From Mobula hypostoma (taxonomy: Eukaryota): a stretch of 64,000 bases of DNA. The stretch covers positions 15,128,001 through 15,192,000 of the forward strand of contig NC_086108.1 of the NCBI RefSeq assembly GCF_963921235.1, written 5' to 3'. Under the pieces are notes generated by a model that worked only from the letters and a program-made list of their open reading frames with translations, did no database searches and was not told the origin of the DNA. Below are positions 1-59,301 of the stretch, piece by piece; positions within the stretch are counted from its first letter, which is position 1; every line of letters starts with the position of its first letter. A program made the translations under genes and the position numbers.

Positions 1-3000
1 GACTCTGGGCCAGGTTGGGGATGAATAATTGACTCTGGGCCAGGTTGGGGATGAATAGTTGACTCTGGGCCAGGTTGGGGATGAATGGTTGACTCTGGGC
101 CAGGTTGGGGATGAATGGTTGACTCTGGGCCAGGTTTTGGGGATGAATGGTTGACTCTGGGCCAGGTTGGGGATGAATGGTTGACTCTGGGCCAGGTTGG
201 GGATGAATGGTTGACTCTGGGCCAGGTTGGGGATGAATAGTTGACTCTGGGCCAGGTTGGGGATGAATAGTTGACTCTGGGCCAGGTTGGGGATGAATGG
301 TTGACTCTGGGCCAGGTTGGGGATGAATGGTTGACTCTGGGCCAGGTTGGGGATGAATGGTTGACTCTGGACCAGGCTGGGGATGAATGGTTGACTCTGG
401 GCCAGGTTGGGGATGAACGGTTGACTCTGGGCCAGGTTGGGGATGAATGGTTAACTCTGGGCCAGGTTGGGGATGAACGGTTGACTCTGGGCCAGGTTGG
501 GGATGAATGGTTGACTCTGGACCAGGCTGGGGATGAATGGTTGACTCTGGGCCAGACAAGGGTTCGACAATGTCCTCTGGGCCAGGTTGGGGATGAACAC
601 TACCTTCTGGGCTAGGTTGGGGATGAATGGTTGACTCTGGGCCAGGTTGGTAATGAATAATTGACTCTGGGCCTGGTTGGGGATGAATAGTTGACTCTGG
701 GCCAGGTTAGGGATGAATGGTTGACTCTGGGCCAGGTTTTGGGGATGAATGGTTGACTCTGGGCCAGGTTGGGGATGAACAGTTGACTCTGGGCCAGGTT
801 AGGGATGAATGCTTGACTCTGGACCAGGCTGGGGATGAATGGTTGACTCTGGGCCAGACTGGGGTTCAACAATGTCCTCTGGGCCAGGTTGGGGATGAAC
901 ACTACCCTCTGGGCTAGGTTGGGGATGAATAGTTGACTCTGGGCCAGGTTGGGGATGAATGGTTGACTAGGGGCCAGGTTGGGGATGAATTGTTCACTCT
1001 GGCCTAGGTTGGGGATGAATGGTTGACTCTGGGCCAGGTTGGGGATGAATGGTTGACTCTGGGCCAGGTTGGGGATGAATGGTTGACTCTGGGCCAGGTT
1101 GGGGATGAATGGTTGACTCTGGGCCAGGTTGGGGATGAATGGTTGACTCTGGGCCAGGTTGGGGATGAATAGTTGACTCTGGCCCAGGTTGGGGATGAAT
1201 GGTTGACTCTGGGCCAGGTTGGGGATGAATGGTTGACTCGGAGCCAGGTTGGGTATGAATGGTTGACTCTGGACCAGGCTGGGGATGAATGGTTGACTCT
1301 GGGCCAGGTTGGGGATGAATAGTTGACTCTGGGCCAGGTTGGGGATGAATAGTTGACTCTGGCCCAGGTTGGGGATGAATGGTTGACTCTGGGCCAGGTT
1401 GGGGATGAATGGTTGACTCTGGGCCAGGTTGGGGATGAACGGTTGACTCTGGGCCAGGTTGGGGATGAACGGTTGACTCTGGGCCAGGTTGGGGATGAAT
1501 GGTTGACTCTGGGCCAGGTTTGGGGATGAATGGTTGACTCTGGGCCAGGTTGGGGATGAATAGTTGACTCTGGGCCAGGTTGGGGATGAATAGTTGACTC
1601 TGGGCCAGGTTGGGGATGAACACTACCCTCTGGGCTAGGTTGGGGATGAATGGTTGACTCTGGGCCAGGTTGGGGATGAATGGTTGACTCTGGGCCAGGT
1701 TGGGGATGAATAGTTGACTCTGGGCCAGGTTGGGGATGAATGGTTGACTCTGGGCCAGGTTGGGGATGAATGGTTAACTCTGGGCCAGGTTGGGGATAAA
1801 CGGTTGACTCTGGGCCAGGTTGGGGATGAACACTACCTTCTGGGCTAGGTTGGGGATGAATGGTTGACTCTGGGCCAGGTTGGGAATGAATAATTGACTC
1901 TGGGCCAGGTTGGGGATGAATGGTTGACTCTGGGCCAGGTTTTGGGGATGAATGGTTGACTCTGGGCCAGGTTGGGGATGAATGGTTGACTCTGGGCCAG
2001 GTTGGGGATGAATGGTTGACTCTGGGCCAGGTTGGGGATGAATAGTTGACTCTGGGCCAGGTTGGGGATGAATAGTTGACTCTGGGCCAGGTTGGGGATG
2101 AATGGTTGACTCTGGGCCAGGTTGGGGATGAATGGTTGACTCTGGGCCAGGTTGGGGATGAATAGTTGACTCTGGGCTAGGTTGGGGATGAATGGTTGAC
2201 TCTGGACCAGGTTGGGGATGAATGGTTGACTCTGGGCCAGGTTGGGGATGAATAGTTGACTCTGGGCCAGGTTGGGGATGAATGGTTGACTCTGGGCCAG
2301 GTTGGGGATGAATGGTTGACTCTGGGCCAGGTTGGGGATGAATGGTTGACTCTGGGCCAGGTTGGGGATGAATGGTTGACTCTGGGCCAGGTTGGGGATG
2401 AATAGTTGACTCTGGGCCAGGTTGGGGATGAATAGTTGACTCTGGGCCAGGTTGGGGATGAATGGTTGACTCTGGGCCAGGTTGGGGATGAATGGTTGAC
2501 TCTGGGCCAGGTTGGGGATGAATGGTTGACTCTGGACCAGGCTGGGGATGAACGGTTGACTCTGGGCCAGGTTGGGGATGAACGGTTGACTCTGGGCCAG
2601 GTTGGGGATGAATGGTTGACTCTGGGCCAGGTTGGGGATGAATGGTTGACTCTGGGCCAGGTTGGGGATGAATGGTTGACTCTGGGCCAGGTTGGGGATG
2701 AATGGTTGACTCTGAGCCAGGTTGGGGATGAATGGTTGACTCTGGACCAGGCTGGGGATGAATGGTTGACGCTGGGCCAGGTTGGGGATGAACACTACCC
2801 TCTGGGCCAGGTTGGGAATGAATGGTTGATTCTGGACCAGGCTGGGGATGAATGGTTGACTCTGGGCCAGACTAGGGTTCCACAGTGTCCTCTGGGCCAG
2901 GTTGGGGATGAACACTACCTTCTGGGCTAGGTTGGGGATGAATGGTTGACTCTGGGCCAGGTTGGGAATGAATAATTGACTCTGGGCCTGGTTGGGGATG

Positions 3001-6000
3001 AATAGTTGACTCTGGGCCAGGTTAGGGATGAATGGTTGACTCTGGGCCAGGTTTTGGGGATGAATGGTTGACTCTGGGCCAGGTTGGGGATGAATGGTTG
3101 ACTCTGGGCCAGGTTGGGGATGAATAATTGACTCTGGGCCAGGTTAGGGATAAATAGTTGACTCTGGGCCAGGTTGGGGATGAATGGTTGACTCTGGGCC
3201 AGGTTGGGGATGAATGGTTGACTCTGGGCCAGGTTGGGGATGAATGGTTGACTCTGGGCCAGGTTGGGGATGAATAGTTGACTCTGGGCCAGGTTGGGGA
3301 TGAATGGTTGACTCTGGGCCAGGTTGGGGATGAATAGTTGACTCTGGGCCAGGTTGGGGATGAATAGTTGACTCTGGGCCAGGTTGGGGATGAATGGTTG
3401 ACTCTGGGCCAGGTTGGGGATGAATGGTTGACTCTGGACCAGGTTGGGGATGAATGGTTGACTCTGGGCCAGGTCAGGGATGAATAGATGACTCTGGGCC
3501 AGGTTGGGGATGAATAGTTGACTCTGGGCCAGGTTGGGGATGAATAGTTGACTCTGGGCCAGGTTGGGGATGAATGGTTGACTCTGGGCCAGGTTGGGGA
3601 TGAATAGTTGACTCTGGGCCAGGTTGGGGATGAATGGTTGACTCTGGGCCAGGTTGGGGATGAATGGTTGACTCTGGGCCAGGTTGGGGATGAATGGTTG
3701 ACTCTGGGCCAGGTTGGGGATGAATGGTTGACTCTGGGCCAGGTTGGGGATGAATGGTTGACTCTGGGCCAGGTTGGGGATGAATAGTTGACTCTGGGCC
3801 AGGTTGGGGATGAATAGTTGACTCTGGGCCAGGTTGGGGATGAATGGTTGACTCTGGACCAGGTTGGGGATGAATGGTTGACTCTGGGCCAGGTTAGGGA
3901 TGAATAGTTGACTCTGGGCTAGGTTGGGGATGAATAGTTGACTCTGGGCCAGGTTGGGGATGAATAGTTGACTCTGGGCCAGGTTGGGGATGAATGGTTG
4001 ACTCTGGGCCAGGTTGGGGATGAATAGTTGACTCTGGGCCAGGTTGGGGATGAATAGTTGACTCTGGGCTAGGTTGGGGATGAATGGTTGACTCTGGACC
4101 AGGTTGGGGATGAATGGTTGTCTCTGGGCCAGGTTGGGGATGAATGGTTGACTCTGGGCCAGGTTGGGGATGAATGGTTGACTCTGGGCCAGGTTGGGGA
4201 TGAATGGTTGACTCTGGGCCAGGTTGGGGATGAATAGTTGACTCTGGGCCAGGTTGGGGATGAATGGTTGACTCTGGGCCAGGTTGGGGATGAATGGTTG
4301 ACTCGGAGCCAGGTTGGGTATGAATGGTTGACTCTGGACCAGGCTGGGGATGAATGGTTGACTCTGGGCCAGGTTGGGGATGAACGGTTGACTCTGGGCC
4401 AGGTTGGGGATGAATGGTTGACTCTGGGCCAGGTTGGGGATGAACGGTTGACTCTGGGCCAGGTTGGGGATGAATGGTTGACTCTGGACCAGGCTGGGGA
4501 TGAATGGTTGACTCTGGGCCAGACTGGGGTTCGACAATGTCCTCTGGGCCAGGTTGGGGATGAACACTACCTTCTGGGCTAGGTTGGGGATGAATGGTTG
4601 ACTCTGGGCCAGGTTGGGAATGAATAATTGACTCTGGGCCTGGTTGGGGATGAATATTTGACTCTGGGCCAGGTTAGAGATGAATGGTTGACTCTGGGCC
4701 AGGTTTTGGGGATGAATGGTTGACTCTGGGCCAGGTTTTGGGGATGAATGGTTGACTCTGGGCCAGGTTGGGGATGAATAGTTGACTCTGGGCCAGGTTG
4801 GGGATGAATAGTTGACTCTGGGCCAGGTTGGGGATGAATGGTTGACTCTGGGCCAGGTTGGGGATGAATGGTTGACTCGGAGCCAGGTTGGGTATGAATG
4901 GTTGACTCTGGACCAGGCTGGGGATGAATGGTTGACTTTGGGCCAGGTTGGGGATGAACGGTTGACTCTGGGCCAGGTTGGGCATGAATGGTTAACTCTG
5001 GGCCAGGTTGGGGATGAACGGTTGACTCTGGGCCAGGTTGGGGATGAATGGTTGACTCTGGACCAGGCTGGGGATGAATGGTTGACTCTGGGCCAGACGA
5101 GGGTTCGACAATGTCCTCTGGGCCAGGTTGGGGATGAACACTACCTTCTGGGCTAGGTTGGGGATGAATGGTTGACTCTGGGCCAGGTTGGGAATGAATA
5201 ATTGACTCTGGGCCTGGTTGGGGATGAATAGTTGACTCTGGGCCAGGTTAGGGATGAATGGTTGACTCTGGGCCAGGTTTTGGGGATGAATGGTTGACTC
5301 TGGGCCAGGTTGGGGATGAACAGTTGACTCTGGGCCAGGTTAGGGATGAATGCTTGACTCTGGCCCAGGTTAGGGATGAATGGTTGACTCTGGGCCAGGT
5401 TGGGGATGAATGGTTGACTCGGAGCCAGGTTGGGTATGAATGGTTGACTCTGGACCAGGCTGGGGATGAATGGTTGACTCTGGGCCAGGTTGGGGATGAA
5501 CGGTTGACTCTGGGCCAGGTTGGGGATGAATGGTTAACTCTGGGCCAGGTTGGGGATGAACGGTTGACTCTGGGCCAGGTTGGGGATGAATGGTTGACTC
5601 TGGACCAGGCTGGGGATGAATGGTTGACTCTGGGCCAGACAAGGGTTCGACAATGTCCTCTGGGCCAGGATGGGGATGAACACTACCTTCTGGGCTAGGT
5701 TGGGGATGAATGGTTGACTCTGGGCCAGGTTGGGAATGAATAATTGACTCTGGGCCTGGTTGGGGATGAATAGTTGACTCTGGGCCAGGTTGGGGATGAA
5801 TGGTTGACTCTGGGCCAGGTTGGGGATGAATGGTTGACTCTGGGCCAGGTTGGGGATGAATGGTTGACTCTGGGCCAGGTTTTGGGGATGAATGGTTGAC
5901 TCTGGGCCAGGTTGGGGATGAATAGTTGACTCTGGGCCAGGTTGGGGATGAATAGTTGACTCTGGGCCAGGTTGGGGATGAATGGTTGACTCTGGGCCAG

Positions 6001-9000
6001 GTTGGGGATGAATGGTTGACTCTGGGCCAGGTTGGGGATGAATGGTTGACTCTGGGCCAGGCTGGGGATGAATGGTTGACTCTGGGCCAGGTTGGGGATG
6101 AATGGTTGACTCTGGGCCTGGTTGGGGATGAATGGTTGACTCTGGGCCAGGTTGGGGATGAATGGTTGACTCTGGGCCAGGTTGGGGATGAATGGTTGAC
6201 TCTGGACCAGGCTGGGGATGAATGGTTGACTCTGGGCCAGACTAGGGTTCGACAATGTCCTCTGGGCCAGGTTGGGGATGAACACTACCTTCTGGGCTAG
6301 GTTGGGGATGAATGGTTGACTCTGGGCCAGGTTGGGAATGAATAATTGACTCTGGGCCAGGTTGGGGATGAATAGTTGACTCTGGGCCAGGTTGGGGATG
6401 AATGGTTGACTCTGGGCCAGGTTGGGGATGAATGGTTGACTCTGGGCCAGGTTGGGGATGAATAGTTGACTCTGGGCCAGGTTAGGGATGAATGCTTGAC
6501 TCTGGACCAGGCTGGGGATGAATGGTTGACTCTGGGCCAGACTGGGGTTCAACAATGTCCTCTGGGCCAGGTTGGGGATGAACACTACCCTCTGGGCAAG
6601 GTTGGGGATGAATAGTTGACTCTGGGCCAGGTTGGGGATGAATGGTGGACTAGGAGCCAGGTTGGGGATGAATAGTTGACTCTGGGCCAGGTTTGGGGAT
6701 GAATGGTTGACTCTGGGCCAGGTTGGGGATGAATAGTTGACTCTGGGCCAGGTTGGGGATGAATGGTTGACTCTGGGCCAGGTTGGGGATGAATGGTTGA
6801 CTCTGGGCCAGGTTGGGGATGAATGGTTGACTCTGGGCCAGGTTGGGGATGAATAATTGACTCTGGGCCAGGTTGGGGATGAATAGTTGACTCTGGGCCA
6901 GGTTGGGGATGAATGGTTGACTCTGGGCCAGGTTGGGGATGAATGGTTGACTCTGGGCCAGGTTTTGGGGATGAATGGTTGACTCTGGGCCAGGTTGGGG
7001 ATGAATGATTGACTCTGGCCCAGGTTGGGGATGAATGGTTGACTCTGGGCCAGGTTGGGGATGAATAGTTGACTCTGGGCCAGGTTGGGGATGAATAGTT
7101 GACTCTGGGCCAGGTTGCGGATGAATGGTTGACTCTGGGCCAGGTTGGGGATGAATGGTTGACTCTGGACCAGGTTGGGGATGAATGGTTGACTCTGGGC
7201 CAGGTTGGGGATGAATAGATGACTCTGGGCCAGGTTGGGGATGAATAGTTGACTCTGGGCCAGGTTGGGGATGAATAGTTGACTCTGGGCCAGGTTGGGG
7301 ATGAATGGTTGACTCTGGGCCAGGTTGGGGATGAATAGTTGACTCTGGGCCAGGTTGGGGATGAATAGTTGACTCTGGGCCAGGTTGGGGATGAATGGTT
7401 GACTCTGGGCCAGGTTGGGGATGAATGGTTGACTCTGGGCCAGGTTGGGGATGAATGGTTGACTCTGGGCCAGGTTGGGGATGAATGGTTGACTCTGGGC
7501 CAGGTTGGGGATGAATGGTTGACTCTGGGCCAGGTTGGGGATGAATAGTTGACTCTGGGCCAGGTTGGGGATGAATGGTTGACTCTGGACCAGGTTGGGG
7601 ATGAATGGTTGACTCTGGGCCAGGTTGGGGATGAATGGTTGACTCTGGGCCAGGTTGGGGATGAATGGTTGACTCTGGGCCAGGTTGGGGATGAATGGTT
7701 AACTCTGGGCCAGGTTGGGGATGAACGGTTGACTCTGGGCCAGGTTGGGGATGAATGGTTGACTCTGGACCAGGCTGGGGATGAATGGTTGACTCTGGGC
7801 CAGACTGGGGTTCGACAATGTCCTCTGGGCCAGGTTGGGGATGAACACTACCTTCTGGGCTAGGTTGGGGATGAATGGTTGACTCTGGGCCAGGTTGGGA
7901 ATGAATAATTGACTCTGGGCCAGGTTGGGGATGAATAGTTGACTCTGGGCCAGGTTGGGGATGAATGGTTGACTCTGGGCCAGGTTTTGGGGATGAATGG
8001 TTGACTCTGGGCCAGGTTGGGGATGAATGGTTGACTCTGGGCCAGGTTGGGGATGAATAGTTGACTCTGGGCCAGGTTGGGGATGAATAGTTGACTCTGG
8101 GCCAGGTTGGGGATGAATGGTTGACTCTGGGCCAGGTTGGGGATGAATGGTTGACTCTGGGCCAGGTTGGGGATGAATGGTTGACTCTGGACCAGGCTGG
8201 GGATGAATGGTTGACTCTGGGCCAGGTTGGGGATGAATGGTTGACTCTGGGCCAGGTTGGGGATGAATTGTTGACTCTGGGCCAGGTTGGGGATGAATGG
8301 TTGACTCTGGGCCAGGTTGGGGATGAATGGTTGACTCTGGACCAGGCTGGGGATGAATGGTTGACTCTGGGCCAGACGAGGGTTCGACAATGTCCTCTGG
8401 GCCAGGTTGGGGATGAACACTACCTTCTGGGCTAGGTTGGGGATGAATGGTTGACTCTGGGCCAGGTTGGGGATGAATAATTGACTCTGGGCCAGGTTGG
8501 GGATGAATAGTTGACTCTGGGCCAGGTTGGGGATGAATGGTTGACTCTGGGCCAGGTTGGGGATGAATGGTTGACTCTGGGCCAGGTTGGGGATGAATAG
8601 TTGACTCTGGGCCAGGTTGGGGATGAATGCTTGACTCTGGCCCAGGTTAGGGATGAATGGTTGACTCTGGGCCAGGTTGGGGATGAATGGTTGACTCGGA
8701 GCCAGGTTGGGTATGAATGGTTGACTCTGGACCAGGCTGGGGATGAATGGTTGACTCTGGGCCAGGTTGGGGATGAATGGTTGACTCTGGGCCAGGTTGG
8801 GGATGAATGGTTAACTCTGGGCCAGGTTGGGGATGAACGGTTGACTCTGGGCCAGGTTGGGGATGAATGGTTGACTCTGGACCAGGCTGGGGATGAATGG
8901 TTGACTCTGGGCCAGACAAGGGTTCGACAATGTCCTCTGGGCCAGGATGGGGATGAACACTACCTTCTGGGCTAGGTTGGGGATGAATGGTTGACTCTGG

Positions 9001-12000
9001 GCCAGGTTGGGGATGAATAATTGACTCTGGGCCTGGTTGGGGATGAATAGTTGACTCTGGGCCAGGTTGGGGATGAATGGTTGACTCTGGGCCAGGTTTT
9101 GGGGATGAATGGTTGACTCTGGGCCAGGTTGGGGATGAATGGTTGACTCTGGGCCAGGTTGGGGATGAATGGTTGACTCTGGGCCAGGTTGGGGATGAAT
9201 AGTTGACTCTGGGCCAGGTTGGGGATGAATAGTTGACTCTGGGCCAGGTTGGGGATGAATGGTTGACTCTGGGCCAGGTTGGGGATGAATGGTTGACTCT
9301 GGGCCAGGTTGGGGATGAATGGTTGACTCTGGACCAGGCTGGGGATGAATGGTTGACTCTGGGCCAGGTTGGGGATGAATGGTTGACTCTGGGCCAGGTT
9401 GGGGATGAATGGTTGACTCTGGGCCAGGTTGGGGATGAATGGTTGACTCTGGGCCAGGTTGGGGATGAATGGTTGACTCTGGACCAGGCTGGGGATGAAT
9501 GGTTGACTCTGGGCCAGACTAGGGTTCGACAATGTCCTCTGGGCCAGGTTGGGGATGAACACTACCTTCTGGGCTAGGTAGGGGATGAATGGTTGACTCT
9601 GGGCCAGGTTGGGAATGAATAATTGACTCTGGGCCTAGTTGGGGATGAATAGTTGACTCTAGGCCAGGTTAGGGATGAATGGTTGACTCTGGGCCAGGTT
9701 TTGGGGATGAATGGTTCACTCTGGGCCAGGTTGGGGATGAACAGTTGACTCTGGGCCAGGTTAGGGATGAATGCTTGACTCTGGACCAGGCTGGGGATGA
9801 ATGGTTGACTCTGGGCCAGACTGGGGTTCAACAATGTCCTCTGGGCCAGGTTGGGGATGAACACTACCCTCTGGGCAAGGTTGGGGATGAATAGTTGACT
9901 CTGGGCCAGGTTGGGGATGAATGGTTGACTAGGGGCCAGGTTGGGGATGAATTGTTGACTCTGGGCCAGGTTTGGGGATGAATGGTTGACTCTGGGCCAG
10001 GTTGGGGATGAATAGTTGACTCTGGGCCAGGTTGGGGATGAATGGTTGACTCTGGGCCAGGTTTTGGGGATGAATGGTTGACTCTGGGCCAGGTTGGGGA
10101 TGAATGGTTGACTCTGGGCCAGGTTGGGGATGAATAATTGACTCTGGGCCAGGTTAGGGATAAATAGTTGACTCTGGGCCAGGTTGGGGATGAATGGTTG
10201 ACTCTGGGCCAGGTTGGGGATGAATGGTTGACTCTGGGCCAGGTTGGGGATGAATGGTTGACTCTGGGCCAGGTTGGGGATGAATGGTTGACTCTGGGCC
10301 AGGTTGGGGATGAATGGTTGACTCTGGGCCAGGTTGGGGATGAATAGTTGACTCTGGGCCAGGTTGGGGATGAATAGTTGACTCTGGGCCAGGTTGGGGA
10401 TGAATGGTTGACTCTGGGCCAGGTTGGGGATGAATGGTTGACTCTGGACCAGGTTGGGGATGAATGGTTGACTCTGGGCCAGGTTAGGGATGAATAGTTG
10501 ACTCTGGGCTAGGTTGGGGATGAATAGTTGACTCTGGGCCAGGTTGGGGATGAATAGTTGACTCTGGGCCAGGTTGGGGATGAATGGTTGACTCTGGGCC
10601 AGGTTGGGGATGAATAGTTGACTCTGGGCCAGGTTGGGGATGAATGGTTGACTCTGGGCCAGGTTGGGGATGAATGGTTGACTCTGGGCCAGGTTGGGGA
10701 TGAATGGTTGACTCTGGGCCAGGTTGGGGATGAATGGTTGACTCTGGGCCAGGTTGGGGATGAATGGTTGACTCTGGGCCAGGTTGGGGATGAATAGTTG
10801 ACTCTGGGCCAGGTTGGGGATGAATAGTTGACTCTGGGCCAGGTTGGGGATGAATACTTGACTCTGGGCCAGGTTGGGGATGAATGGTTGAATCTGGACC
10901 AGGTTGGGGATGAATGGTTGACTCTGGGCCAGGTTAGGGATGAATAGTTGACTCTGGGCCAGGTTGGGGATGAATAGTTGACTCTGGGCCAGGTTGGGGA
11001 TGAATTGTTGACTCTGGGCCAGGTTGGGGATGAATGGTTGACTCTGGGCCAGGTTGGGGATGAATAGTTGACTCTGGGCCAGGTTGGGGATGAATAGTTG
11101 ACTCTGGGCCAGGTTGGGGATGAATGGTTGACTCTGGGCCAGGTTGGGGATGAATGGTTGACTCTGGGCCAGGTTGGGGATGAATGGTTGACTCTGGGCC
11201 AGGTTGGGGATGAATGGTTGACTCTGGGCCAGGTTGGGGATGAATGGTTGACTCTGGGCCAGGTTGGGGATGAATAGTTGACTCTGGGCCAGGTTGGGGA
11301 TGAATGGTTGACTCTGGGCCTGGTTGGGGATGAATGGTTGACTCTGGGCCAGGTTGGGGATGAATGGTTGACTCTGGGCCAGGTTGGGGATGAATAATTG
11401 ACTCTGGGCCAGGTTAGGGATAAATAGTTGACTCTGGGCCAGGTTGGGGATGAATGGTTGACTCTGGGCCAGGTTGGGGATGAATGGTTGACTCTGGGCC
11501 AGGTTTTGGGGATGAATGGTTGACTCTGGGCCAGGTTGGGGATGAATGGTTGACTCTGGCCCAGGTTGGTGATGAATGGTTGACTCTGGGCCAGGTTGGG
11601 GATGAATAGTTGACTCTGGGCCAGGTTGGGGATGAATAGTTGACTCTGGGCCAGGTTGGGGATGAATGGTTGACTCTGGGCCAGGTTGGGGATGAATGGT
11701 TGACTCTGGGCCAGGTTAGGGATGAATAGTTGACTCTGGGCTAGGTTGGGGATGAATAGTTGACTCTGGGCCAGGTTGGGGATGAATGGTTGACTCTGGG
11801 CCAGGTTGGGGATGAATAGTTGACTCTGGGCCAGGTTGGGGATGAATAGTTGACTCTGGGCCAGGTTGGGGATGAATGGTTGACTCTGGACCAGGTTGGG
11901 GATGAATGGTTGACTCTGGGCCAGGTTGGGGATGAATGGTTGACTCTGGGCCAGGTTGGGGATGAATGGTTGACTCTGGGCCAGGTTGGGGATGAATGGT

Positions 12001-30000: not shown

Positions 30001-33000
30001 CCAGGTTTTGGGGATGAATGGTTGACTCTGGGCCAGGTTGGGGATGAATGGTTGACTCTGGGCCAGGTTGGGGATGAATAGTTGACTCTGGGCCAGGTTG
30101 GGGATGAATGGTTGACTCTGGGCCAGGTTGGGGATGAATGGTTGACTCTGGGCCAGGTTGGGGATGAATGGTTGACTCTCGGCCAGGTTGCGGATGAATG
30201 GTTGACTCTGGGCCAGACTGGGGTTCGACAGTGTCCTCTGGGCCAGGTTGGGGATGAACACTACCTTCTGGGCTAGGTTGGGGATGAATGGTTGACTCTG
30301 GGCCAGGTTTGGGGATGAATAATTGACTCTGGGCCAGGTTGGGGATGAATAGTTGACTCTGGGCCAGGTTGGGGATGAATAGTTGACTCTGGGCCAGGTT
30401 GGGGATGAATGGTTGACTCTGGGCCAGGTTGGGGATGAATGGTTGACTCTGGGCCAGGTTGGGGATGAATAGTTGACTCTGGGCCAGGTTGGGGATGAAT
30501 AGTTGACTCTGGGCCAGGTTGGGGATGAATGGTTGACTCTGGGCCAGGTTGGGGATGAATGGTTGACTCTGGACCAGGTTGGGGATGAATTGTTGACTCT
30601 GGGCCAGGTTTGGGGATGAATGGTTGACTCTGGGCCAGGTTGGGGATGAATGGTTGACTCTGGGCCAGGTTGGGGATGAATAGTTGACTCTGGGCCAGGT
30701 TGGGGATGAATAGTTGACTCTGGGCCAGGTTGGGGATGAACACTACCCTCTGGGCTAGGTTGGGGATGAATGGTTGACTCTGGGCCAGGTTGGGGATGAA
30801 TGGTTGACTCCAGGCCAGGTTGGGGATGAATAGTTGACTCTGGGCCAGGTTGGGGATGAATGGTTGATTCTGGACCAGATTGGGGATGAATAGTTGACTC
30901 TGGGCCAGGCTGGGGACAAACGGTTGACTCGGGGCCAGGTTGGTAATGAATAGTTCACCCTGGGCCAGGTTGGGGATGAATAGTTGACTCTGGGCCAGGT
31001 TGGGGATGAATGGTTGACTCTGGGCCAGGTTGGGGATGAATGGTTGACTCTGGGCCAGGTTGGGGATGAATGGTTGACTCTGGGCCAGGTTGGGGATGAA
31101 TGGTTGACTCTGGGCCAGGTTGGGGATGAATGGTTGACTCTGGACCAGGTTGGGGATGAATGGTTGACTCTGGACCAGGCTGTGATTGAATAATGCCCTC
31201 TGGGCCAGGTTGGGGATGAATGCTTGACTCTGGACCAGGCTGGGGATGAATGGTTGACTCTGGGCCAGACTGGGGTTCAACAATGTCCTCTGGGCCAGGT
31301 TGGGGATGAAAACTACCCTCTGGGCTAGGTTGGGGATGAATAGTTGACTCTGGGCCAGGTTGGGGATGAATGGTTGACTCTGGGCCAGGTTGGGGAAGAA
31401 TGGTTGACTCTGGGCCAGGTTGGGGATGAATAGTTGACTCTGGGCCAGGTTGGGGATGAATGGTTGACTCTGGGCCAGGTTGGGGATGAATAGTTGACTC
31501 TGGGCCAGGTTGGGGATGAATTGTTGACTCTGGGCCAGGTTTGGGGATGAATGGTTGACTCTGGGCCAGGTTGGGGATGAATAGTTGACTCTGGGCCAGG
31601 TTGGGGATGAATAGTTGACTCTGGGCCTGGTTGGGGATGAATGGTTGACTCTCGGCCAGGTTGGGGATGAATAATTAACTCTGGGCCAGGTTGGGGATGA
31701 ATAGTTGACTCTGGGCCAGGTTGGGGATGAATGGTTGACTCTGGGCCAGGTTGGGGATGAATGGTTGACTCTGGGCCAGGTTGGGGATGAATGGTTGACT
31801 CTGGGCCAGGTTGGGGATGAATAGTTGACTCTGGGCCAGGTTGGGGATGAATGGTTGACTCTGGGCCAGGTTTTGGGGATGAATGGTTGACTCTGGGCCA
31901 GGTTGGGGATGAATGGTTGACTCTGGGCCAGGTTGGGGATGAATAGTTGACTCTGGGCCAGATTGGGGATGAATGGTTGAATCTGGACCAGGTTGGGGAT
32001 GAATGGTTGACTCTGGGCCAGGTTGGGGATGAATGGTTGACTCTGGGCCAGGTTGGGGATGAATGGTTGACTCTGGACCAGGCTGGGGATGAATGGTTGA
32101 CTCTGGGCCAGACTGGGGTTCAACAATGTCCTCTGGGCCAGGTTGGGGATGAACACTACCCTCTGGGCTAGGTTGGGGATGAATGGTTGACTCTGGGCCA
32201 GGTTGGGGATGAATAGTTGACTCTGGGCCAGGTTGGGGATGAATGGTTGACTCTGGGCCAGGTTGGGGATGAATGGTTGACTCTGGGCCAGGTTGGGGAT
32301 GAATGGTTGACTCTGGGCCAGGTTGGGGATGAATAGTTGACTCTGGGCCAGGTTGGGGATGAATGGTTGACTCTGGGCCAGGTTGGGGATGAATGGTTGA
32401 CTCTGGGCCAGGTTGGGGATGAATGGTTGACTCTGGACCAGGCTGGGGATGAATGGTTGACTCTGGGCCAGACTGGGGTTCAACAATGTCCTCTGGGCCA
32501 GGTTGGGGATGAACACTACCCTCTGGGCTAGGTTGGGGATGAATGGTTGACTCTGGGCCAGGTTTGGGGATGAATAGTTGACTCTGGGCCAGGTTGGGGA
32601 TGAATAGTTGACTCTGGGCCAGGTTGGGGATGAATAGTTGACTCTGGGCCAGGTTGGGGATGAATGGTTGACTCTGGGCCAGGTTGGGGATGAATAGTTG
32701 ACTCTGGGCCAGGTTGGGGATGAATGGTTGACTCTGGGCCAGGTTGGGGATGAATGGTTGACTCTGGGCCAGGTTGGGGATGAATGTTGACTCTGGATGA
32801 AATGGTTGAATAGTTGACTCTGGACCTCCAGGTTGGGGATGAATAGTTGACTCTGGGCCAGGTTGGGGATGAATGGTTGACTCTGGGCCAGGTTGGGGAT
32901 GAATAGTTGACTCTGGGCCAGGTTGGGGATGAATGGTTGACTCTGGACCAGGTTGGGGATGAATGGTTGACTCTGGGCCAGGTTGGGGATGAATAGTTGA

Positions 33001-36000
33001 CTCTGGGCCAGGTTGGGGATGAATAGTTGACTCTGGACCAGGTTAGGGATGAATGGTTGACTCTGGACCAGGCTGGGGATGATTGGTTGACTCTGGGCCA
33101 GACTGGGGTTCAACAATGTCCTTTGGGCCAGGTTGGGGATGAACACTACCCTCTGGGCTAGGTTGGGGATGGATGGTTGACTCTGGGCCAGGTTTGGGAT
33201 GAATAGTTGACTCTGGGCCAGGTTGGGGATGAATAGTTGACTCTGGGCCAGGTTGGGGATGAATAGTTGACTCTGGGCCAGGTTGGGGATGAATGGTTGA
33301 CTCTGGGCCAGGTTGGGGATGAATAGTTGACTCTGGGCCAGGTTGGGGATGAATGGTTGACTCTGGGCCAGGTTGGGGATGAATAGTTGACTCTGGGCCA
33401 GGTTGGGGATGAATAGTTGACTCTGGGCCAGGTTGGGGATGAACACTACCCTCTGGGCCAGGTTGGGGATGAATAGTTGACTCTGGGCCAGGTTGGGGAT
33501 GCATAGTTGACTCGGGGCCAGTTTGGGGATAAATAATTGACTCGGGGTCAGGTTGGGGATGAATGGTTGACTCTGGGCCAGGTTGGGGATGAATGGTTGA
33601 CTCTGGGCCAGGTTGGGGATGAATGGTTGACTCTGGGCCAGGTTGGGGATGAATAGTTGACTCTGGGCCAGGTTGGGGATGAATGGTTGACTCTGGGCCA
33701 GGTTGGGGATGAATGGTTGACTCTGGGCCAGGTTGGGGATGAATGGTTGACTCTGGGCCAGGTTGGGGATGAATGGTTGACTCTGGACCAGGCTGGGGAT
33801 GAATGGTTGACTCTGGGCCAGACTGGGGTTCAACAATGTCCTCTGGGCCAGGCTGGGGATGAACACTACCCTCTGGGCTAGGTTGGGGATGAATAGTTGA
33901 CTCTGGGCCAGGTTGGGGATGAATAGTTGACTCTGGGCCAGGTTGGGGATGAATGGTTGACTCTGGGCCAGGTTGGGGATGAATGGTTGACTCTGGGCCA
34001 GGTTTGGGGATGAATGGTTGACTCTGGGCCAGGTTGGGGATGAATAGTTGACTCTGGGCCTGGTTGGGGATGAATGGTTGACTCTCGGCCAGGTTGGGTA
34101 TGAATGGTTGACTCTGGGCCAGGTTTGGGGATGAATGGTTGACTCTGGACCAGGTTGGGGATGAATGGTTGACTCTGGGCCAGGTTGGGGTTGAACATTG
34201 TCCTCTGGGCCAGGTTGGGGATGAATGGTTGACTCTGGGCTAGGTTGGGGATGAATGGTTGACTCTGGGCCAGGTTTGGAATGAATAATTGACTCTGGGC
34301 CAGGTTGGGGATGAATAGTTGACTCTGGGCCAGGTTGGGGATGAATAGTTGACTCTGGGCCAGGTTGGGGATGAATGGTTGACTCTGGGCCAGGTTGGGG
34401 ATGAATGGTTGACTCTGGGCCAGGTTGGGGATGAATAGTTGACTCTGGGCCAGGTTGGGGATGAATGGTTGACTCTGGGCCAGGTTGGGGATGAATAATT
34501 AACTCTGGGCCAGGTTGGGGATGAATAGTTGACTCTGGGCCAGGTTGGGGATGAATGGTTGACTCTGGGCCAGGTTGGGGATGAATGGTTGACTCTGGGC
34601 CAGGTTTGGGAATGAATGGTTGACTCTGGGCCAGGTTTGGGGATGAATGGTTGACTCTGGGCCAGGTTGGGGATGAATAGTTGACTGTGGGCCAGGTTGG
34701 GGATGAATAGTTGACTCTGGGCCAGGTTGGGGATGAACACTACCCTCTGGGCTAGGTTGGGGATGAATGGTTGACTCTGGGCCAGGTTAGGGATGAATGG
34801 TTGACTCTGGGCCAGGTTGGGGATGAATAGTTGACTCTGGGCCAGGTTGGGGATGAATGGTTGATTCTGGACCAGATTGGGGATGAATAGTTGACTCTGG
34901 GTCAGGCTGGGGACAAACGGTTGACTCGGGGCCAGGTTGGTAATGAATAGTTCACCCTGGGCCAGGTTGGGGATGAATAGTTGACTCTGGGCCAGGTTGG
35001 GGATGAATGGTTGACTCTGGGCCAGGTTGGGGATGAATGGTTGACTCTGGGCCAGGTTGGGGATGAATGGTTGACTCTGGGCCAGGTTGGGGATGAATGG
35101 TTGACTCTGGGCCAGGTTGGGGATGAATGGTTGACTCTGGACCAGGTTGGGGATGAATGGTTGACTCTGGACCAGGCTGTGATTGAATAATGCCCTCTGG
35201 GCCAGGTTGGGGATGAATGCTTGACTCTGGACCAGGCTGGGGATGAATGGTTGACTCTGGGCCAGACTGGGGTTCAACAATGTCCTCTGGGCCAGGTTGG
35301 GGATGAAAACTACCCTCTGGGCTAGGTTGGGGATGAATAGTTGACTCTGGGCCAGGTTGGGGATGAATAGTTGACTCTGGGCCAGGTTGGGGATGAATAG
35401 TTGACTCTGGGCCAGGTTGGGGATGAATGGTTGACTCTGGGCCAGGTTGGGGATGAATGGTTGACTCTGGGCCAGGTTGGGGATGAATGGTTGACTCTGG
35501 GCCAGGTTGGGGATGAATGGTTGACTCTGGGCCAGGTTGGGGATGAATAGTTGACTCTGGGCCAGGTTGGGGATGAATAGTTGACTCTGGGCCAGGTTGG
35601 GGATGAATGGTTGACTCTGGGCCAGGTTGGGGATGAATAATTAACTCTGGGCCAGGTTGGGGATGAATAGTTGACTCTGGGCCAGGTTGGGGATGAATAG
35701 TTGACTCTGGGCTAGGTTGGGGATGAATGGTTGACTCTGGGCCAGGTTGGGGATGAATGGTTGACTCTGGGCCAGGTTGGGGATGAATAGTTGACTCTGG
35801 GCCAGGTTGGGGATGAATGGTTGACTCTGGGCCAGGTTGGGGATGAATAGTTGACTCTGGGCCAGGTTGGGGATGAATGGTTGACTCTGGGCCAGGTTGG
35901 GGATGAATGGTTGACTCTGGGCCAGGTTGGGGATGAATGGTTGACTCTGGGCCAGGTTGGGGATGAATGGTTGACTCTGGACCAGGCTGGGGATGATTGG

Positions 36001-37822
36001 TTGACTCTGGGCCAGACTGGGGTTCAACAATGTCCTTTGGGCCAGGTTGGGGATGAACACTACCCTCTGGGCTAGGTTGGGGATGGATGGTTGACTCTGG
36101 GCCAGGTTGGGGATGAATAGTTGACTCTGGGCCAGGTTGGGGATGAATGGTTGACTCTGGGCCAGGTTGGGGATGAATGGTTGACTCTGGGCCAGGTTGG
36201 GGATGAATGGTTGACTCTGGGCCAGGTTGGGGATGAATAGTTGACTCTGGGCCAGGTTGGGGATGAATGGTTGACTCTGGGCCAGGTTGGGGATGAATAA
36301 TTGACTCTGGGCCAGGTTGGGGATGAATAGTTGACTCTGGGCCAGGTTGGGGATGAACACTACCCTCTGGGCCAGGTTGGGGATGAATAGTTGACTCTGG
36401 GCCAGGTTGGGGATGAATAGTTGACTCGGGGCCAGGTTGGGGATGAATAGTTGACTCTGGGCCAGGTTGGGGATGAATGGTTGAATCTGGACCAGGTTGG
36501 GGATGAATGGTTGACTCTGGGCCAGGTTAGGGATGAATAGTTGACTCTGGGCCAGGTTGGGGATGAATAGTTGACTCTGGGCCAGGTTGGGGATGAATGG
36601 TTGACTCTGGGCCAGGTTGGGGATGAATAGTTGACTCTGGGCCAGGTTGGGGATGAATAGTTGACTCTGGGCCTGGTTGGGGATGAATGGTTGACTCTCG
36701 GCCAGGTTGCGGATGAATGGTTGACTCTGGGCCAGACTGGGGTTCGACAGTGTCCTCTGGGCCAGGTTGGGGATGAACACTACCCTCTGGGCTAGGTTGG
36801 GGATGAATGGTTGACTCTGGGCCAGGTTGGGGATGAATAGTTGACTCTGGGCCAGGTTGGGGATGAATGGTTGACTCTGGGCCAGGTTGGGGATGAATGG
36901 TTGACTCTGGGCCAGGTTGGGGATGAATGGTTGACTCTGGGCCAGGTTGGGGATGAATAGTTGACTCTGGGCCAGGTTGGGGATGAATGGTTGACTCTGG
37001 GCCAGGTTGGGGATGAATGGTTGACTCTGGGCCAGGTTGGGGATGAATGGTTGACTCTGGACCAGGTTGGGGATGAATGGTTGACTCTGGGCCAGACTGG
37101 GGTTCGACAATGTCCTCTGGGCCAGGTTGGGGATGAATTGTTGACTCTGGGCTAGGTTGGGGATGAATGGTTGACTCTGGGCCAGGTTGGGGATGAATAA
37201 TTGACTCTGGGCCAGGTTGGGGATGAATAGTTGACTCTGGGCCAGGTTGGGGATGAATGGTTGACTCTGGGCCAGGTTGGGGATGAATGGTTGACTCTGG
37301 GCCAGGTTGGGGATGAATGGTTGACTCTGGGCCAGGCTGGGGATGAATGGTTGACTCTGGGCCAGGTTGGGGATGAATGCTTGACTCTGGACCAGGCTGG
37401 GGATGAATGGTTGACTCTGGGCCAGACTGGGGTTCACTAATGTCCTCTGGGCCAGGTTGGGGATGAATAGTTGACTCTGGGCCAGGTTGGGGATGAATAG
37501 TTGACTCTGGGCCAGGTTTGGGGATGAATGGTTGACTCTGGGCCAGGTTGGGGATGAATAGTTGACTCTGGGCCAGGTTGGGGATGAATAGTTGACTCTG
37601 GGCCAGGTTGGGGATGAATGGTTGACTCTGGGCCAGGTTGGGGATGAATAGTTGACTCTGGGCCAGGTTGGGGATGAATAGTTGACTCTGGGCCAGGTTG
37701 GGGATGAATGGTTGACTCTGGACCAGGCTGGGATTGAATAATGCCCTCTGGGCCAGGTTGCGGATGAACAGTGCCCTCTGGGCCAGGCTGGGGATGAACG
37801 GTTGACACTGAGCCAGGCTGGG
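1..37822. repeat. Giant tandem array (minisatellite/satellite) of a 30-bp unit, about 1,260 copies, open at the left window edge
   Basis: Directly visible unit GACTCTGGGCCAGGTTGGGGATGAATGGTT. Recurrent variants: aatgg/aatag/aataa/aacgg, ggacc, ggctgg, +T or +TT after cagg, and marker units 'actggggttcgacaatgtcc' and 'aacactacc(t/c)tc'. Units degenerate at ~37730-37822. Confidence 0.99.
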
Positions 37823-37992
37823 AGGTGAGAGATGGTGGTGACAAAGAGCTGCAGTTGGTGGAATCTGAAAGGAGAGGAAGATGGAGCATGGAGTCAAGTA
37901 AGGGAGGTGTGGTGGAAAAGAAAACTGTGATAAGGGGATGATTTGGATGGATGTAGGGAGAACTGAGAAGACCAGAAGAGAGGGAAGGAACA

Positions 37993-38345
37993 AATAGAAA
38001 CATTGAAAACCTGCAGCACAATATAGGCCCTTCGGCCTACAAAGCTGGGCCGAACATGGCCTTACATTAGAAATTACCTAGGGTTACCCATAACCCTCTA
38101 TTTTTTAAGCTCCATGTGCTATCCAGGAGTCTCTTAAAAAAAACCCTATCGTATCCACCTTCACCACCATTGCTGGCAGCCCATTCCACACACTCAACAA
38201 TCTCTGCGTAAAAAAAAAACTTACCCCTGACATCTCCTCTGTACCTGCTTCCAAGCACCTTAAAACTGTGCCCTCACGTGCTGGCTATTTCAGCCCTGGG
38301 GAAAAGACGCTGACCATCCACACGATCAATGCCTCTCATCATCTT
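37993..38345 (-). mobile_element. CR1-clade LINE, 3' end (left part of a copy split by an L1 insertion)
   Basis: Reverse strand reads as a CR1 ORF2 C-terminus (RYRGDVRGKFF...) and 3' UTR, with a tail remnant 'atagaaacattgaaa'. It continues at 41032 after the duplicated ATCATCTT. Confidence 0.85.
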
Positions 38346-41031
38346 TCTTTTTTTTCAATATTTTCATTCGTTACTTACGTAAAATGTATTTATAAGAGTA
38401 CAGTAGGATATATAATGTATATAGATTACAATATATTGAAATCACAGATAAAGTGTAATTACCCTATATCCATATAAAATTAAATTTAAATATAATATTG
38501 AAAAGAGATAATTTTATTACACAAAAAAATCTAAACCCACTACCAGAAAAAAAAACAGCTGTTAGGTTAAAAAAAAGAAAAGGAAGAAATCCTTAACATA
38601 TGATAAAACATATTATTTTCCAACATCTGTGCTTAATAGCAAATCGAAGATTTTGAAAATAATTCAGAAAAGGTCCCCACAATGTTAAAAAATCTTGTCT
38701 AGGTTCAGAAATTGAACTAGCGAATCTTCTCTAAATTTAAGCAAGACATAACATCATGTAACCAATGAGTAGGAGTAGGCGGGGTGGCATCCTTCCACTT
38801 AAGCAACAATGCCCCCCTGGCTATGAGAGAAATAAAGGCCAAAATATGCAGATCATGTGTCTCCAAAATAATATAATTTCCTCCAACAATAAGGCAGTCA
38901 AAGGATTAGGTTTAAAATTTACTTTGAAAAGCACCAAAAAAGTTTGAAATACTTCCTTCCAATATTTTTCAAGACTCGCGGACAAGTCCAAAACACATGG
39001 ATTAGAGAAGCTTCTCCATTATTTACATCTATCACAAAAGGGAGATATATCTGAATAAAAACGAGACAGCCTATCTTTAGACATACGGGCTTTATGAACC
39101 ACTTTAAATTGTAAAAGGGAATGATGAGCACATAAATACGAGGTATTAACCAATTTAAAAATTTCATTCCAAGTGTCCTCAGAAATCGAAATCTGTAAAT
39201 CTTGTTCCCAAAGATTTTTAATTTTATCTAAAGGAATATTTCTCATTCCCAACAACATACCATAAATATTAGGTATAGATGCATTATGGAAGGATTTAAA
39301 ATTAAAAATTATATTAAGTAAATTTTTATCTGGACCTTTTGGAAATGTATGTACTTGAGAACACAAAAAGTCTCTAATTTCTAAATATCGAAAAAAGTGA
39401 GTTCTCGGTACGCTATATTTAACTGACAGTTGTTCAAATGAAGAGAGAGTATCTCCAACAAACAAATTATGAAAACATTTAATACCCAATCTATTCCAGT
39501 CTTTAAAAACTACATCAGACTTGGAAGGTTTAAAAAAAAAGTTAGAAAAAATGGGACTGGAAAGTGAAAAACTCAATAAACCAAAATATTTTCTAAATTG
39601 AACCCAAATCCTCAAAGTGTGTTTAGCTACAAAATTATCAGTTAAATTACTTAGAGATAAAGGAATTGAGGATCTGAGAAGAGAAATGATAGCGAATTTA
39701 TTAACAGAGCTTCTAAAGAAACCCAGACCGGACAGTCCTCTCGATTAATATAATATAACCAAAACATAAGATTCCGTATGTGACTGCCCAGTAATAAAAA
39801 ACTAAAATTGGGTAAGGCTAAACCTCCATTCTTTTTAGCTTTTTGAAGATGAACTTTATTTAATCGAGAAATTTTATTTTTCCATATATAAGAAGATATA
39901 ATAGAATCCAAAGAATCAAAAAAGGATTTGGGAATAAAAACAGGTATGGCCTGAAATAAATATAAAAATTTAGGCAAAATATTCATTTTAATGGAATTGA
40001 TTCAGCCAATCAACGATAAAGAGAGGGGCAACCAATTTGAAAGTGCCTGCTTAACATAATTCAGAAGTGTAAAAAATTTTCTTTAATGAGAAATTTATAA
40101 TTCCTAGTAATTGTTATGCCCAAATAAGTAAATTCATTTCTTACAATTTTAAAAGGAAGGTTAGTATTAACTAATACCAAATTATTCAAAGGAAAAAGTT
40201 CACTCTTATAAAAGTTAAGTTTATATCCAGAAAACTGACTAAAGCAGGAAAGTAGAAAAGGTAAAGAAGACTCCACATTAGAAATGTAGAGCAAAAAATC
40301 ATCAGCATAAAGCGAAACTTTGTGGGTAATACCCCTCCTTAAAATACCAGTGATATCATTAGATTCCCAGAAAGCAATAGCTGAAGGTTCTAAGACCAAA
40401 TCAAAAAGCAAAGGACTCAAGGGACAGCCTTGTCTAGTTCCACGATAAAGTTTAAATGGTTTAGAGTACTGAAAGTTAGTAAGAACCTGAGTGGAGGGAG
40501 ATAAATAAAGTAATTTAATCCATTGAATAAAATTGGGCCCAAAGTTAAATTTTTCTAAAGTTTTAAATAATTCCATTCAACCTGATCAAAGGCTTTCTCA
40601 GTATCTAAGGATATCACACATTCTGAAATCTCTTTAGAAGGAGAATAACATTCAATAAACAACGAATATTTAAGTGGGAGTATCGATTTTTGATAAATCC
40701 AGTATGATCATCAGAGACAATAGATGGCAAAATATTTTCAATCCTATTAGCCAAAAGTTTAGATATTTTAGTAGCAACATTAAGTAAGGAAATAGGTCTC
40801 TAAGAAGAGCATTCGATTGTGTCCTTGTTCTTTTAAAGAATAAGTGAAATAGAGGCTTCATAAAAAGATTGTGGCAACTTTCCTAATTTAAAAGAGTCAG
40901 AAAGGACTGAATATAAATGAGGTATAAGCAACGAGGAAAAAGCCTTATAAAACTCTCCAGAAAATCCATCGAGGCCCAGAGCCTTCCCCGAGTGCAAAGA
41001 ATGAACAACCTTGGCAATTTCCTCATAGGAA
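38346..41031 (-). mobile_element. 5'-truncated, frameshifted L1-clade LINE (ORF2 RT and C-terminal region, 3' UTR, poly-A)
   Basis: ORF fragments SGKALGLDGFSGEFYK, RGTRQGCPLSPLLF, VSLYADD, MNILPKFLYLFQAIP, GGLALPNF and CDRC...HVFWTCP. T-run (reverse poly-A) at ~38346-38356. TSD ATCATCTT at 38338-38345 and 41032-41039. Confidence 0.92.
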
Positions 41032-41330
41032 ATCATCTTATACACCTCTATCGGGTCACCTCTCATCCTCTGTCGCTCCAAAGAGAAACCTATTCTCATA
41101 AGGCATGCTCCCCAATCCAGGCAACATCCTTGTAAATCTCCTCTGCACCCTTTCTATGTTTTCCACATACTTCCTCTAGTGAGGTGACCAGAATTGAGCA
41201 CAGTACCCCAAGTGGGGTGTAACCAGGGTCCTATATAGCTGCAACATTACCTCTCGTCTCCTAAACTCAATCCCACGATTGATGAAGGCCAATGCACCGT
41301 ATATTTTCTGAACCACAGAGTCAACCTGCG
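41032..41330 (-). mobile_element. CR1-clade LINE ORF2 fragment (right part of the split copy)
   Basis: Translation YGALAFINRGIEFRRREVMLQLYRTLVTPHLGYCAQFWSPH, then ...MRGDPIEVYK, typical of the CR1 ORF2 C-terminus. Confidence 0.88.
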
Positions 41331-41594
41331 CAGGAGGAGCATGTTTCCTGAAATCAAAGAATTTAATGTTCACAAAATTGGCTTTTAGACATGGGTTTCA
41401 ACCTGCAGTAGGCATCCTCCCACTTTGTAACCAAACCCAATTATTGATTCCATTCAGCACTTTTAAGCTCTCATCACCAATTAAGTAGTTGTAGTAATTT
41501 CAATTGTAAATTCTATACTTTGTTTTTCATAGACAAGTTCAAACTTTGTTCTTTGAGTCTATGTGGTCTAACTGTTGTATCTTTACATGTCTAG

Positions 41595-41750
41595 TATTCC
41601 GATGAGGACCTAAAAGCAGTGAAGAAGTACAAAGACCATGACTACACTGCTCAGTACTCGCCCTGGTCCTGTGACACAATTAGTTCTTACATTGGCAGCA
41701 AAGATGCACAGCCCAAAGATATGATGACTTCCAGCAGCCTGGAAATGACG
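41595..41750 (+). CDS. RC3H1: Roquin-1 internal coding exon A (phase 0-0)
   Basis: ctag|TAT...ACG|gtaag, 156 nt. Encodes YSDEDLKAVKKYKDHDYTAQYSPWSCDTISSYIGSKDAQPKDMMTSSSLEMT, matching the Roquin-1 motif QYSPWSCDTIGSYIGTKDAKPKD (from memory). Confidence 0.92.
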
Positions 41751-49128: not shown

Positions 49129-49351
49129 AATGTTGACAGTAAAGGCCTGCGGGAACAGCTGATGAACCTTGACATTCAGAGGAGAACCTCTGAAAACAAG
49201 GAGGAAGATCCCATTATCCCGTTCGGGGAGCTGCCAACTGTTTCGAAATTTGGTGCCATTTCTCGCACTTCCAAAACCAGTTATCAGACAACAGGACCAG
49301 TGCAAGCTATGGCTTCACAAAGCATTGCCACCAAGCCCATCAGTGTGTCAG
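49129..49351 (+). CDS. RC3H1: Roquin-1 coding exon B (phase 0-1)
   Basis: ttaacag|AAT...TCA G|gtaag, 223 nt. Encodes NVDSKGLREQLMNLDIQRRTSENKEEDPIIPFGELPTVSKFGAISRTSKTSYQTTGPVQAMASQSIATKPISVS, including the conserved Roquin PFG..PTVS.FGAISRTSKT motif. Confidence 0.93.
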
Positions 49352-50200: not shown

Positions 50201-50202
50201 TA

Positions 50203-53439: not shown

Positions 53440-53533
53440 ATTATAATCCATATGGAAACCACAGCAGTTGGACAAACTCACCAGCCTCATATTCTCATCA
53501 AAGCTTACATGCTCAGGGACATTTTATTGACAG
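53440..53533 (+). CDS. RC3H1: Roquin-1 coding exon C (phase 1-2)
   Basis: ccttggcag|AT TAT...GAC AG|gtggg, 94 nt. Encodes (D)YNPYGNHSSWTNSPASYSHQSLHAQGHFID(R). Phase matches both neighbours. Confidence 0.88.
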
Positions 53534-55125: not shown

Positions 55126-55270
55126 AGAGAGGCTGAACGTACAGGAAATGACTCCCCATGGGAAGCACCCTGTGCCCCACATACCTCCAACGGACCGGGA
55201 CCAGCTGAGGCTGGAGCTGCAACAAGTCAACCAGCAGATCAGCCAGCACAGTCAGCTCCGAGGAATGGAG
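55126..55270 (+). CDS. RC3H1: Roquin-1 coding exon D (phase 2-0), first coiled-coil segment
   Basis: cacag|A GAG AGG...ATG GAG|gtatc, 145 nt. Encodes ERLNVQEMTPHGKHPVPHIPPTDRDQLRLELQQVNQQISQHSQLRGME, close to Roquin-1 EREQLRLELQQLNHQISQQTQLRGLE. Confidence 0.92.
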
Positions 55271-55668: not shown

Positions 55669-55824
55669 GTTGCCAGTAGCCCAGTGCTGGGCCAACGAGA
55701 GGTGGGAAGCCTCACCACACAGCAGCACAGTTCCTGGCCCAGTCGAATGTCCAGCGAGCAGCTGAGCTTGGAACTGCACCAGGTGGAGAGGGAGATCGGC
55801 AAGAGGAAGCATGAGCTGGAGACG
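55669..55824 (+). CDS. RC3H1: Roquin-1 coding exon E (phase 0-0), second coiled-coil segment
   Basis: Strong pyrimidine tract, ccctag|GTT...ACG|gtgagt, 156 nt. Contains [19 protein letters not shown], which I recall as identical in mammalian Roquin-1. Confidence 0.94.
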
Positions 55825-56986: not shown

Positions 56987-57099
56987 GAAAGTCGACCCTC
57001 ACTGGAAGTGCAGTATAAGCTGGCATCGAGCCATCAGGCAGAGAACGGACAGCCTGAGCAGCAGCACAAGCCCTCAGAGGATCTGCAGCCTTCCCTCAG
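56987..57099 (+). CDS. RC3H1: Roquin-1 coding exon F (phase 0-2)
   Basis: acacag|GAA...CTC AG|gtaac, 113 nt. Encodes ESRPSLEVQYKLASSHQAENGQPEQQHKPSEDLQPSL(S), including the QAENGQPE motif of Roquin-1. Confidence 0.9.
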
Positions 57100-59159: not shown

Positions 59160-59301
59160 TGAAAGATGCAAGGTTGGGGCCTCTGGCTTCACTACAGACA
59201 GCTCCGTCAGCGCACTGACCAGCAAAGCCGCCTCTCTCAATCTGGCCCTTGACACAGAGGGAGCAGGGGACCACTGCGACAGCCAACAGAATGGCCTTTA
59301 A
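59160..59301 (+). CDS. RC3H1: Roquin-1 last coding exon G, to the TAA stop
   Basis: Pyrimidine tract then gcaaag|T GAA..., phase 2 matching exon F. Encodes ERCKVGASGFTTDSSVSALTSKAASLNLALDTEGAGDHCDSQQNGL*, similar to the recalled Roquin-1 end (LSNKTSSLNLSEDPEGGGDNNDSQRSG). The acceptor could be 6 nt downstream. Confidence 0.82.

Follow-up and report, generated by a model that had tools for sequence, protein, structure and literature searches.

A recently expanded 30-bp minisatellite, probably intronic to RC3H1, in the ray Mobula hypostoma

The closest described counterpart of the locus studied here is the human CACNA1C variable-number tandem repeat (VNTR), situated in intron 3, whose 30-bp unit is present as a single copy in chimpanzee and for which 158 unit variants, kilobase-scale duplications, and alleles of up to 61 kb have been described (PMC11118589). 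Other human-specific VNTR expansions, among them those in ABCA7 and WDR7, are single-locus, non-coding, confined to one lineage, and shaped by duplication and deletion, and the intronic ABCA7 VNTR alters splicing (PMC8327921). In Drosophila, the Y-linked genes kl-3 and kl-5 carry gigantic introns that are filled with satellite DNA and are transcribed (PMC6508621). Elasmobranch introns are long, and simple tandem repeats predominate in many regions of the red stingray genome (bioRxiv 2025.06.08.657570). Here we describe a tandem array of 30-bp units in a stretch of 64,000 nucleotides of Mobula hypostoma (NCBI RefSeq assembly GCF_963921235.1, contig NC_086108.1, positions 15,128,001 to 15,192,000 of the forward strand; hereafter the window, whose own numbering is used throughout), which probably lies in an intron of RC3H1, the gene encoding roquin-1.

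The array shares with the CACNA1C VNTR a 30-bp unit, an intronic position (here a probable one), restriction to one lineage, a comparable wealth of variants (157 here versus 158), and growth by both tandem and block duplication. The usual human allele measures 5.7 kb, whereas the ray allele reaches at least 37.8 kb; the apparent seed in rays is a few diverged units and not one copy, and the host genes differ. The two loci are likened here without comparing their unit sequences, and the link to expression given in the CACNA1C source concerns that VNTR and not the RC3H1 array (PMC11118589). The ABCA7 and WDR7 VNTRs have in common with the ray locus that a non-coding minisatellite expanded in one lineage, but no splicing effect has been seen for the RC3H1 array. 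The introns of kl-3 and kl-5 are described as megabase-sized and as served by a special spermatocyte programme, whereas the RC3H1 array spans tens of kilobases and nothing indicates such a programme for it. To our knowledge, RC3H1 is not a germline-specific gene. A literature search found no paper on the RC3H1 array, and the main text of the mobulid genome preprint, whose supplements may contain repeat tables, has no occurrence of "roquin" or "RC3H1". We conclude that the array is a real, recent, lineage-specific, and probably intronic giant minisatellite of an already known class, and that what is new is the contrast in depth of the unit between the window's organism and two relatives. Our favoured reading, to which we give a probability of roughly 0.7, is that an ancestral seed expanded in place within the RC3H1 intron and that the resulting array is read through, spliced out, and near-neutral.

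Tandem Repeats Finder returned one array at 1-37,822 with a period of 30, 1,257.6 copies, and 90% matches, and a wrap-around alignment resolved it into 1,258 monomers, 1,191 of them exactly 30 bp long and the others 27-33 bp. The array begins at base 1, and its left end is therefore outside the window. Monomer decomposition found neither a foreign insert nor an N between 1 and 37,822, which bears out the original prediction of a 30-bp satellite of more than 37 kb free of transposable elements. The count of about 1,260 units foreseen there was also right, but their supposed homogeneity was not: the array is a mosaic of 157 distinct monomers in which 404 of the 1,258 are identical to the consensus, the mean distance from the consensus is 5.9%, and units differ from one another by about 10% at all distances between 40 bp and 30 kb. 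Its units run head to tail, fall within the size range of 7-100 bp, and include variant units. No regular higher-order period was detected (autocorrelation maximum of 0.215 versus 0.137 expected), and a centromere-type satellite with higher-order repeats was rejected for this reason. Dispersed block duplications of 0.45-1.3 kb occur at lags of 74-393 units, and six-unit words recur at 21% of the array positions versus 0.6% in shuffles. Irregularly spaced inside the array, 8-83 units apart, are 49 strongly diverged monomers. They sit in a recurring cassette of 3-4 units that resembles the terminal units of the array, and this cassette is probably a relic of an ancestral short array that was carried along during expansion.

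The array was then viewed against public sequencing runs, 20 of 24 of which contain part of 36,800-42,300; four were compared over 37,650-42,300, and the runs X11-X20, with small shares, were left out. Run X1, from the window's organism (organism A) and possibly from the assembly's own sample, has no differences over 1,027 unique bases, and its contig at 37,739-38,034 spans the array end and the flank, likewise with no differences. Among the listed runs, this organism is represented over the stretch by a single DNA sample. Organism B differs by 17 substitutions in 993 intron bases (1.7%) and organism C by 52 in 816 (6.4%). The ratio of the array-end bin to single-copy depth, taken from summed contig depths that represent neither copy number nor expression, is 5,134 in organism A, 2.8 in B, and 1.1 in C. 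The same ratio for a transposon control bin is 84,653, 114,258, and 138,565, and since this bin scales alike in all three organisms, the contrast at the array is not a filter effect. Few units are thus present at the orthologous site in these close relatives, although arrays less than 85% alike would escape detection. In organism B, a contig of run X5 (37,776-38,023) crosses this junction and differs at 6 of 248 positions, and the diverged terminal units at 37,761 are covered at low depth by contigs of both B and C (runs X5 and X10), with contig linkage from these units to the flank seen for A and B only.

The simplest reading of these data is that the expansion is recent and specific to lineage A, after its split from B. 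The seven best block pairs inside the array differ by 0.32-0.87%, values biased low by the choice of best scores, and a wider pair by 1.6%; private changes in array units amount to 0.3% per base. The divergence of the best pairs and the private changes both lie below the intron divergence of 1.7% between A and B, which argues that the expansion is recent. A short minisatellite that was already diverged, followed by a late burst, accounts for a unit diversity of 10% alongside block divergences below 1%. A recent expansion had been proposed from the sequence alone, and the two relatives without it and the young internal duplications agree with that proposal; the alternative offered with it, continuous homogenisation, is unnecessary, because recency already explains why transposons are absent from the array.

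The identity of the host gene was examined through the exons that follow the array. Of 171 candidate proteins, 166 matched the exon at 49,129; the best among the 120 listed matches was shark roquin-1, and the name roquin-2 was absent from these 120. Full-length RefSeq roquin-1 models of 1,154 amino acids exist for Mobula hypostoma (P0124) and M. birostris (P0131), on chromosomes of about 118 Mb, and neither is flagged as low quality; RefSeq models may contain bases taken from transcripts. The seven exons in the window, all with AG/GT ends, encode amino acids 813-1154 and match P0124 and P0131 exactly within the exon limits, and the exon at 41,595 opens precisely at the E812/Y813 boundary, in phase 0. 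The RING, ROQ, and CCCH domains fall within amino acids 1-812 (Pfam on P0124). A search of the window for the exons of this part gave only low-complexity matches within the array, at about 19-27% identity, and two matches at noise level (E values of 1.7 and 6.4), confirming that the upstream RING, ROQ, and zinc-finger exons are missing from it. Judged by its C-terminal exons, which match roquin-1, and by full-length relatives with RING, ROQ, and CCCH domains, the gene is RC3H1. If the window derives from one of the two annotated assemblies, as the protein identity suggests, the exons for amino acids 1-812 must be situated left of the window, which would place the array in the RC3H1 intron that precedes amino acid 813; this position is likely. 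The predicted intronic position is thus supported indirectly, by identity to two full-length models and by the absence of the previous exon from both the array and the gap to its right, with the upstream exon itself outside the window. If the array is intronic, at least 41.6 kb of the intron is visible here.

Transcription was assessed with run X9, a second sample of organism A. None of the 24 listed runs is recorded as RNA, which is no evidence either way, and X9 is taken to be RNA from its exon-limited depth. Depth in this run is about 110-115 over the exon at 41,595, 3.6-6.3 just downstream, and 0 just upstream. Depth confined to the exon together with low intron depth is the pattern of spliced RNA plus some pre-mRNA, and the total of 241 million letters in X9 contigs, versus 2,650 million for X1, argues against genomic DNA at five-fold depth. 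Scaled by X1, under the assumption of equal array length in both samples, array depth per copy is about 5.7, versus 3.6-6.3 in the adjacent intron, and transposon bins have a median of 0.8 (range 0.37-2.8, all 22 of 22 bins). The array thus seems to be transcribed at roughly the level of its own intron, as read-through predicts. This lends rough support to the original prediction that the array is transcribed in the pre-mRNA: its depth is at intron level in one unstranded run, taken by guess to be RNA. The exon lies about 25-fold above intron level, a rough hint that RC3H1 is spliced normally despite the array. Separately, the X9 bin at 37,806-37,961 reaches 48 after scaling, and its summed depth is 3.4 times that of the DNA run X1 and far above every other repeat bin, probably owing to transcripts of paralogous elements.

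The length of the array was examined by a simulation with window k-mers. In two of six settings the ratio of observed to expected depth was 1.3-1.5, corresponding to 50-57 kb; the simulated length depends on how contigs are filtered by length, ranging from 50 kb to 26 Mb across the six settings, so that only its direction is used. No setting indicates that the assembly over-expanded the array.

Among the alternatives, it is unlikely that the array is functional or at least has a measurable effect, with its length or unit make-up tuning Roquin-1 output through elongation delay, pausing at R-loops or G-quadruplexes (G4), binding of transcription factors or heterogeneous nuclear ribonucleoproteins, or about 900 CAG/GTTGG donor-like sites followed by G-runs. 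The sense strand of RC3H1 is G-rich in the array (G 40%, C 15%) and has 901 donor-like CAGGTTGG motifs, with none on the antisense strand, and there are 497 long-loop G3 patterns; yet canonical short-loop G4 are missing, and windows with a G4Hunter score of at least 1.2 make up 4.2% of the array versus 2.5% of the remaining window. Neither AATAAA nor ATTAAA occurs anywhere in the array, and CpG is depleted (122 observed versus 2,225 expected), which also weakens a model of silencing by methylation. RNA folding over 180 nt gave a z of -2.13, with 5 of 200 shuffles as good and with the shuffling destroying the periodicity, and an Rfam scan of 36,000-64,000 had no matches. The CACNA1C VNTR has been linked to about two-fold lower expression (PMC11118589). 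For RC3H1, heterozygous human carriers with autoimmunity have been reported, lending some support to the dosage sensitivity that had been assumed for the gene, although this is tempered by redundancy with Roquin-2 (PMC6803705). The high exon-to-intron ratio and the existence of full-length RefSeq isoforms speak against a tuning role, and the absence of the expansion from close relatives speaks against a conserved one. The delay itself would be small, as 38 kb adds only about 10-20 minutes at the mammalian elongation rate of 2-4 kb per minute, and long introns are usual in elasmobranchs. It is a long shot that, in one ray lineage, Roquin-1 is adjusted as by a rheostat through a species-specific, length-variable array whose donor-like sites and G-runs slow elongation or divert splicing; if this were true, isoforms without the C-terminal region would be expected, and immune tone would vary between sister species and between allele lengths.

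Errors of placement also have to be weighed. Joins in assemblies typically fall in long arrays, contigs link no more than 84 bp of the terminal units to the flank, and the summed depth implies more unit copies than the window holds, copies that could lie at other loci; the array might thus be genuine but not wholly intronic, the assembly having joined an outside satellite block to the seed units or mis-sized the array. We consider this improbable, because the window contains no N, the variant mosaic and the block duplications continue unbroken over 37.8 kb, organism B has seed units at the identical junction, the per-copy RNA depth fits the intron at this locus and not the genome background, and depth gives no sign of over-expansion. 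The 41.6 kb without an upstream exon, and shark annotations that are split into partial models (P0011 with 703 amino acids, P0146 with 445), could raise the suspicion that only a 3' partial copy of RC3H1 is present here, or that its 3' part is driven by a separate promoter, either of which would leave the array outside the gene. The phase 0 start after AG, the seven intact exons identical to full-length models, and the coverage of the exon region by one difference-free X1 contig make this very unlikely. A coding repeat of an antisense gene is scarcely credible and was rejected: stop codons are absent from every frame of the unit on the minus strand, and the longest frames reach 1,113 and 1,488 amino acids, but a unit of this sequence is necessarily open in all three frames, 64 of the 1,258 monomers cause a frameshift, and relatives lack the expansion.

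Several points weigh against expansion in place with read-through. Both the preceding exon and the array's left end are outside the window, the depth contrast comes from contigs, and contigs this short leave the terminal units unphased with respect to the rest of the array. X9 is a single, unstranded run of guessed RNA nature, its depth is zero at 41,394-41,549 in the same intron as the array, and the rows listed show neither an RNA joint nor a loose end at 41,595. Four of the six simulation settings returned implausible lengths of 1.5-26 Mb, and the selected block pairs make the array appear younger than the wider pair does.

In the favoured reading of in-place expansion, the RC3H1 intron before amino acid 813 would, in the ancestor of these rays, have contained a short minisatellite of 30-bp units that had already diverged, and only in the window's lineage would this seed have expanded in place, reaching at least 37.8 kb and perhaps 50 kb or more. 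Single units and blocks of 0.6-3 kb would have been duplicated again and again, most likely through unequal sister-chromatid exchange or slippage, as discussed for the CACNA1C VNTR. RNA polymerase II would transcribe the array within the pre-mRNA, splicing would remove it with the intron, and the array would most likely be a tolerated, near-neutral passenger. More speculatively, the G-rich sense strand and the unit core, which is nearly palindromic, may favour R-loops or hairpins that feed instability.

The array and its right flank are listed with the RC3H1 exons in Table 1. The gap between array end and exon measures 3,772 bp (37,823-41,594), in agreement with the predicted 3.8 kb. The terminal units are a probable remnant of the ancestral short array. 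The end of the array coincides with the start, in the fragment at 37,816-37,990, of a likeness to an interspersed repeat; this likeness is weak (p = 0.015 versus 200 resamples, one of 12 comparisons), and derivation of the unit from the neighbouring element is unsupported, as the units fail to align to it (p = 0.91). Copies of the older repeat that hosts the long interspersed nuclear element (LINE) join 38,337 directly to 41,032 in all four runs, with 8 letters fitting both sides.

Table 1 Coordinates of the array, its right flank, and the RC3H1 exons in the window
Feature	Position	Strand	Remarks
30-bp tandem array (giant minisatellite/VNTR)	1..37822	+	1,258 units visible, continuing past the left edge of the window
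Terminal diverged units	37712..37822	+	Organisms B and C carry similar low-copy sequence
Decayed fragment	37816..37990	.	Resembles interspersed repeat at 51,940-52,360, opposite orientation; local alignment
Broken LINE of about 2.7 kb with reverse transcriptase (RT) domain	38345..41032	-	Inserted in older high-copy repeat; 8-bp target-site duplication
RC3H1 coding exon, amino acids 813-864	41595..41750	+	First exon right of the array, phase 0, preceded by AG
RC3H1 coding exon, amino acids 865-938	49129..49351	+	
RC3H1 coding exon, about amino acids 939-970	53440..53533	+	
RC3H1 coding exon, about amino acids 970-1018	55126..55270	+	
RC3H1 coding exon, amino acids 1019-1070	55669..55824	+	
RC3H1 coding exon, amino acids 1071-1108	56987..57099	+	
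RC3H1 last coding exon, amino acids 1108-1154, to TAA stop	59160..59301	+	3' untranslated region (UTR) follows

Further elements were noted in the remainder of the gene. A young CR1-like LINE fragment with an intact RT frame of 416 amino acids occupies 50173-51520 in an RC3H1 intron, and an antisense 3' LINE fragment at 57663-57976, also intronic, is 97.8% identical to it over 314 bp. Judged by eye, the segment 46360-47550 resembles a decayed transposon of Tc1/mariner type with an inner insertion. A 43-bp tandem duplication in two copies is found at 54784-54866, and the sequence after the stop codon (59302-64000) is mostly repeat-poor and possibly represents a long RC3H1 3' UTR.

Without an effect on expression, the array would be an ordinary, though large, repeat expansion. 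If confirmed, it would be a counterpart of the CACNA1C VNTR outside mammals and would offer a natural experiment in which relatives diverged by 1.7% differ by a repeat of at least 37 kb within a single intron of an immune regulator that is conserved, so that the cost of a young giant intronic array in elongation, splicing, and expression would be directly measurable. It would also mean that ray introns can lengthen through in-place minisatellite bursts, besides the insertion of transposons.

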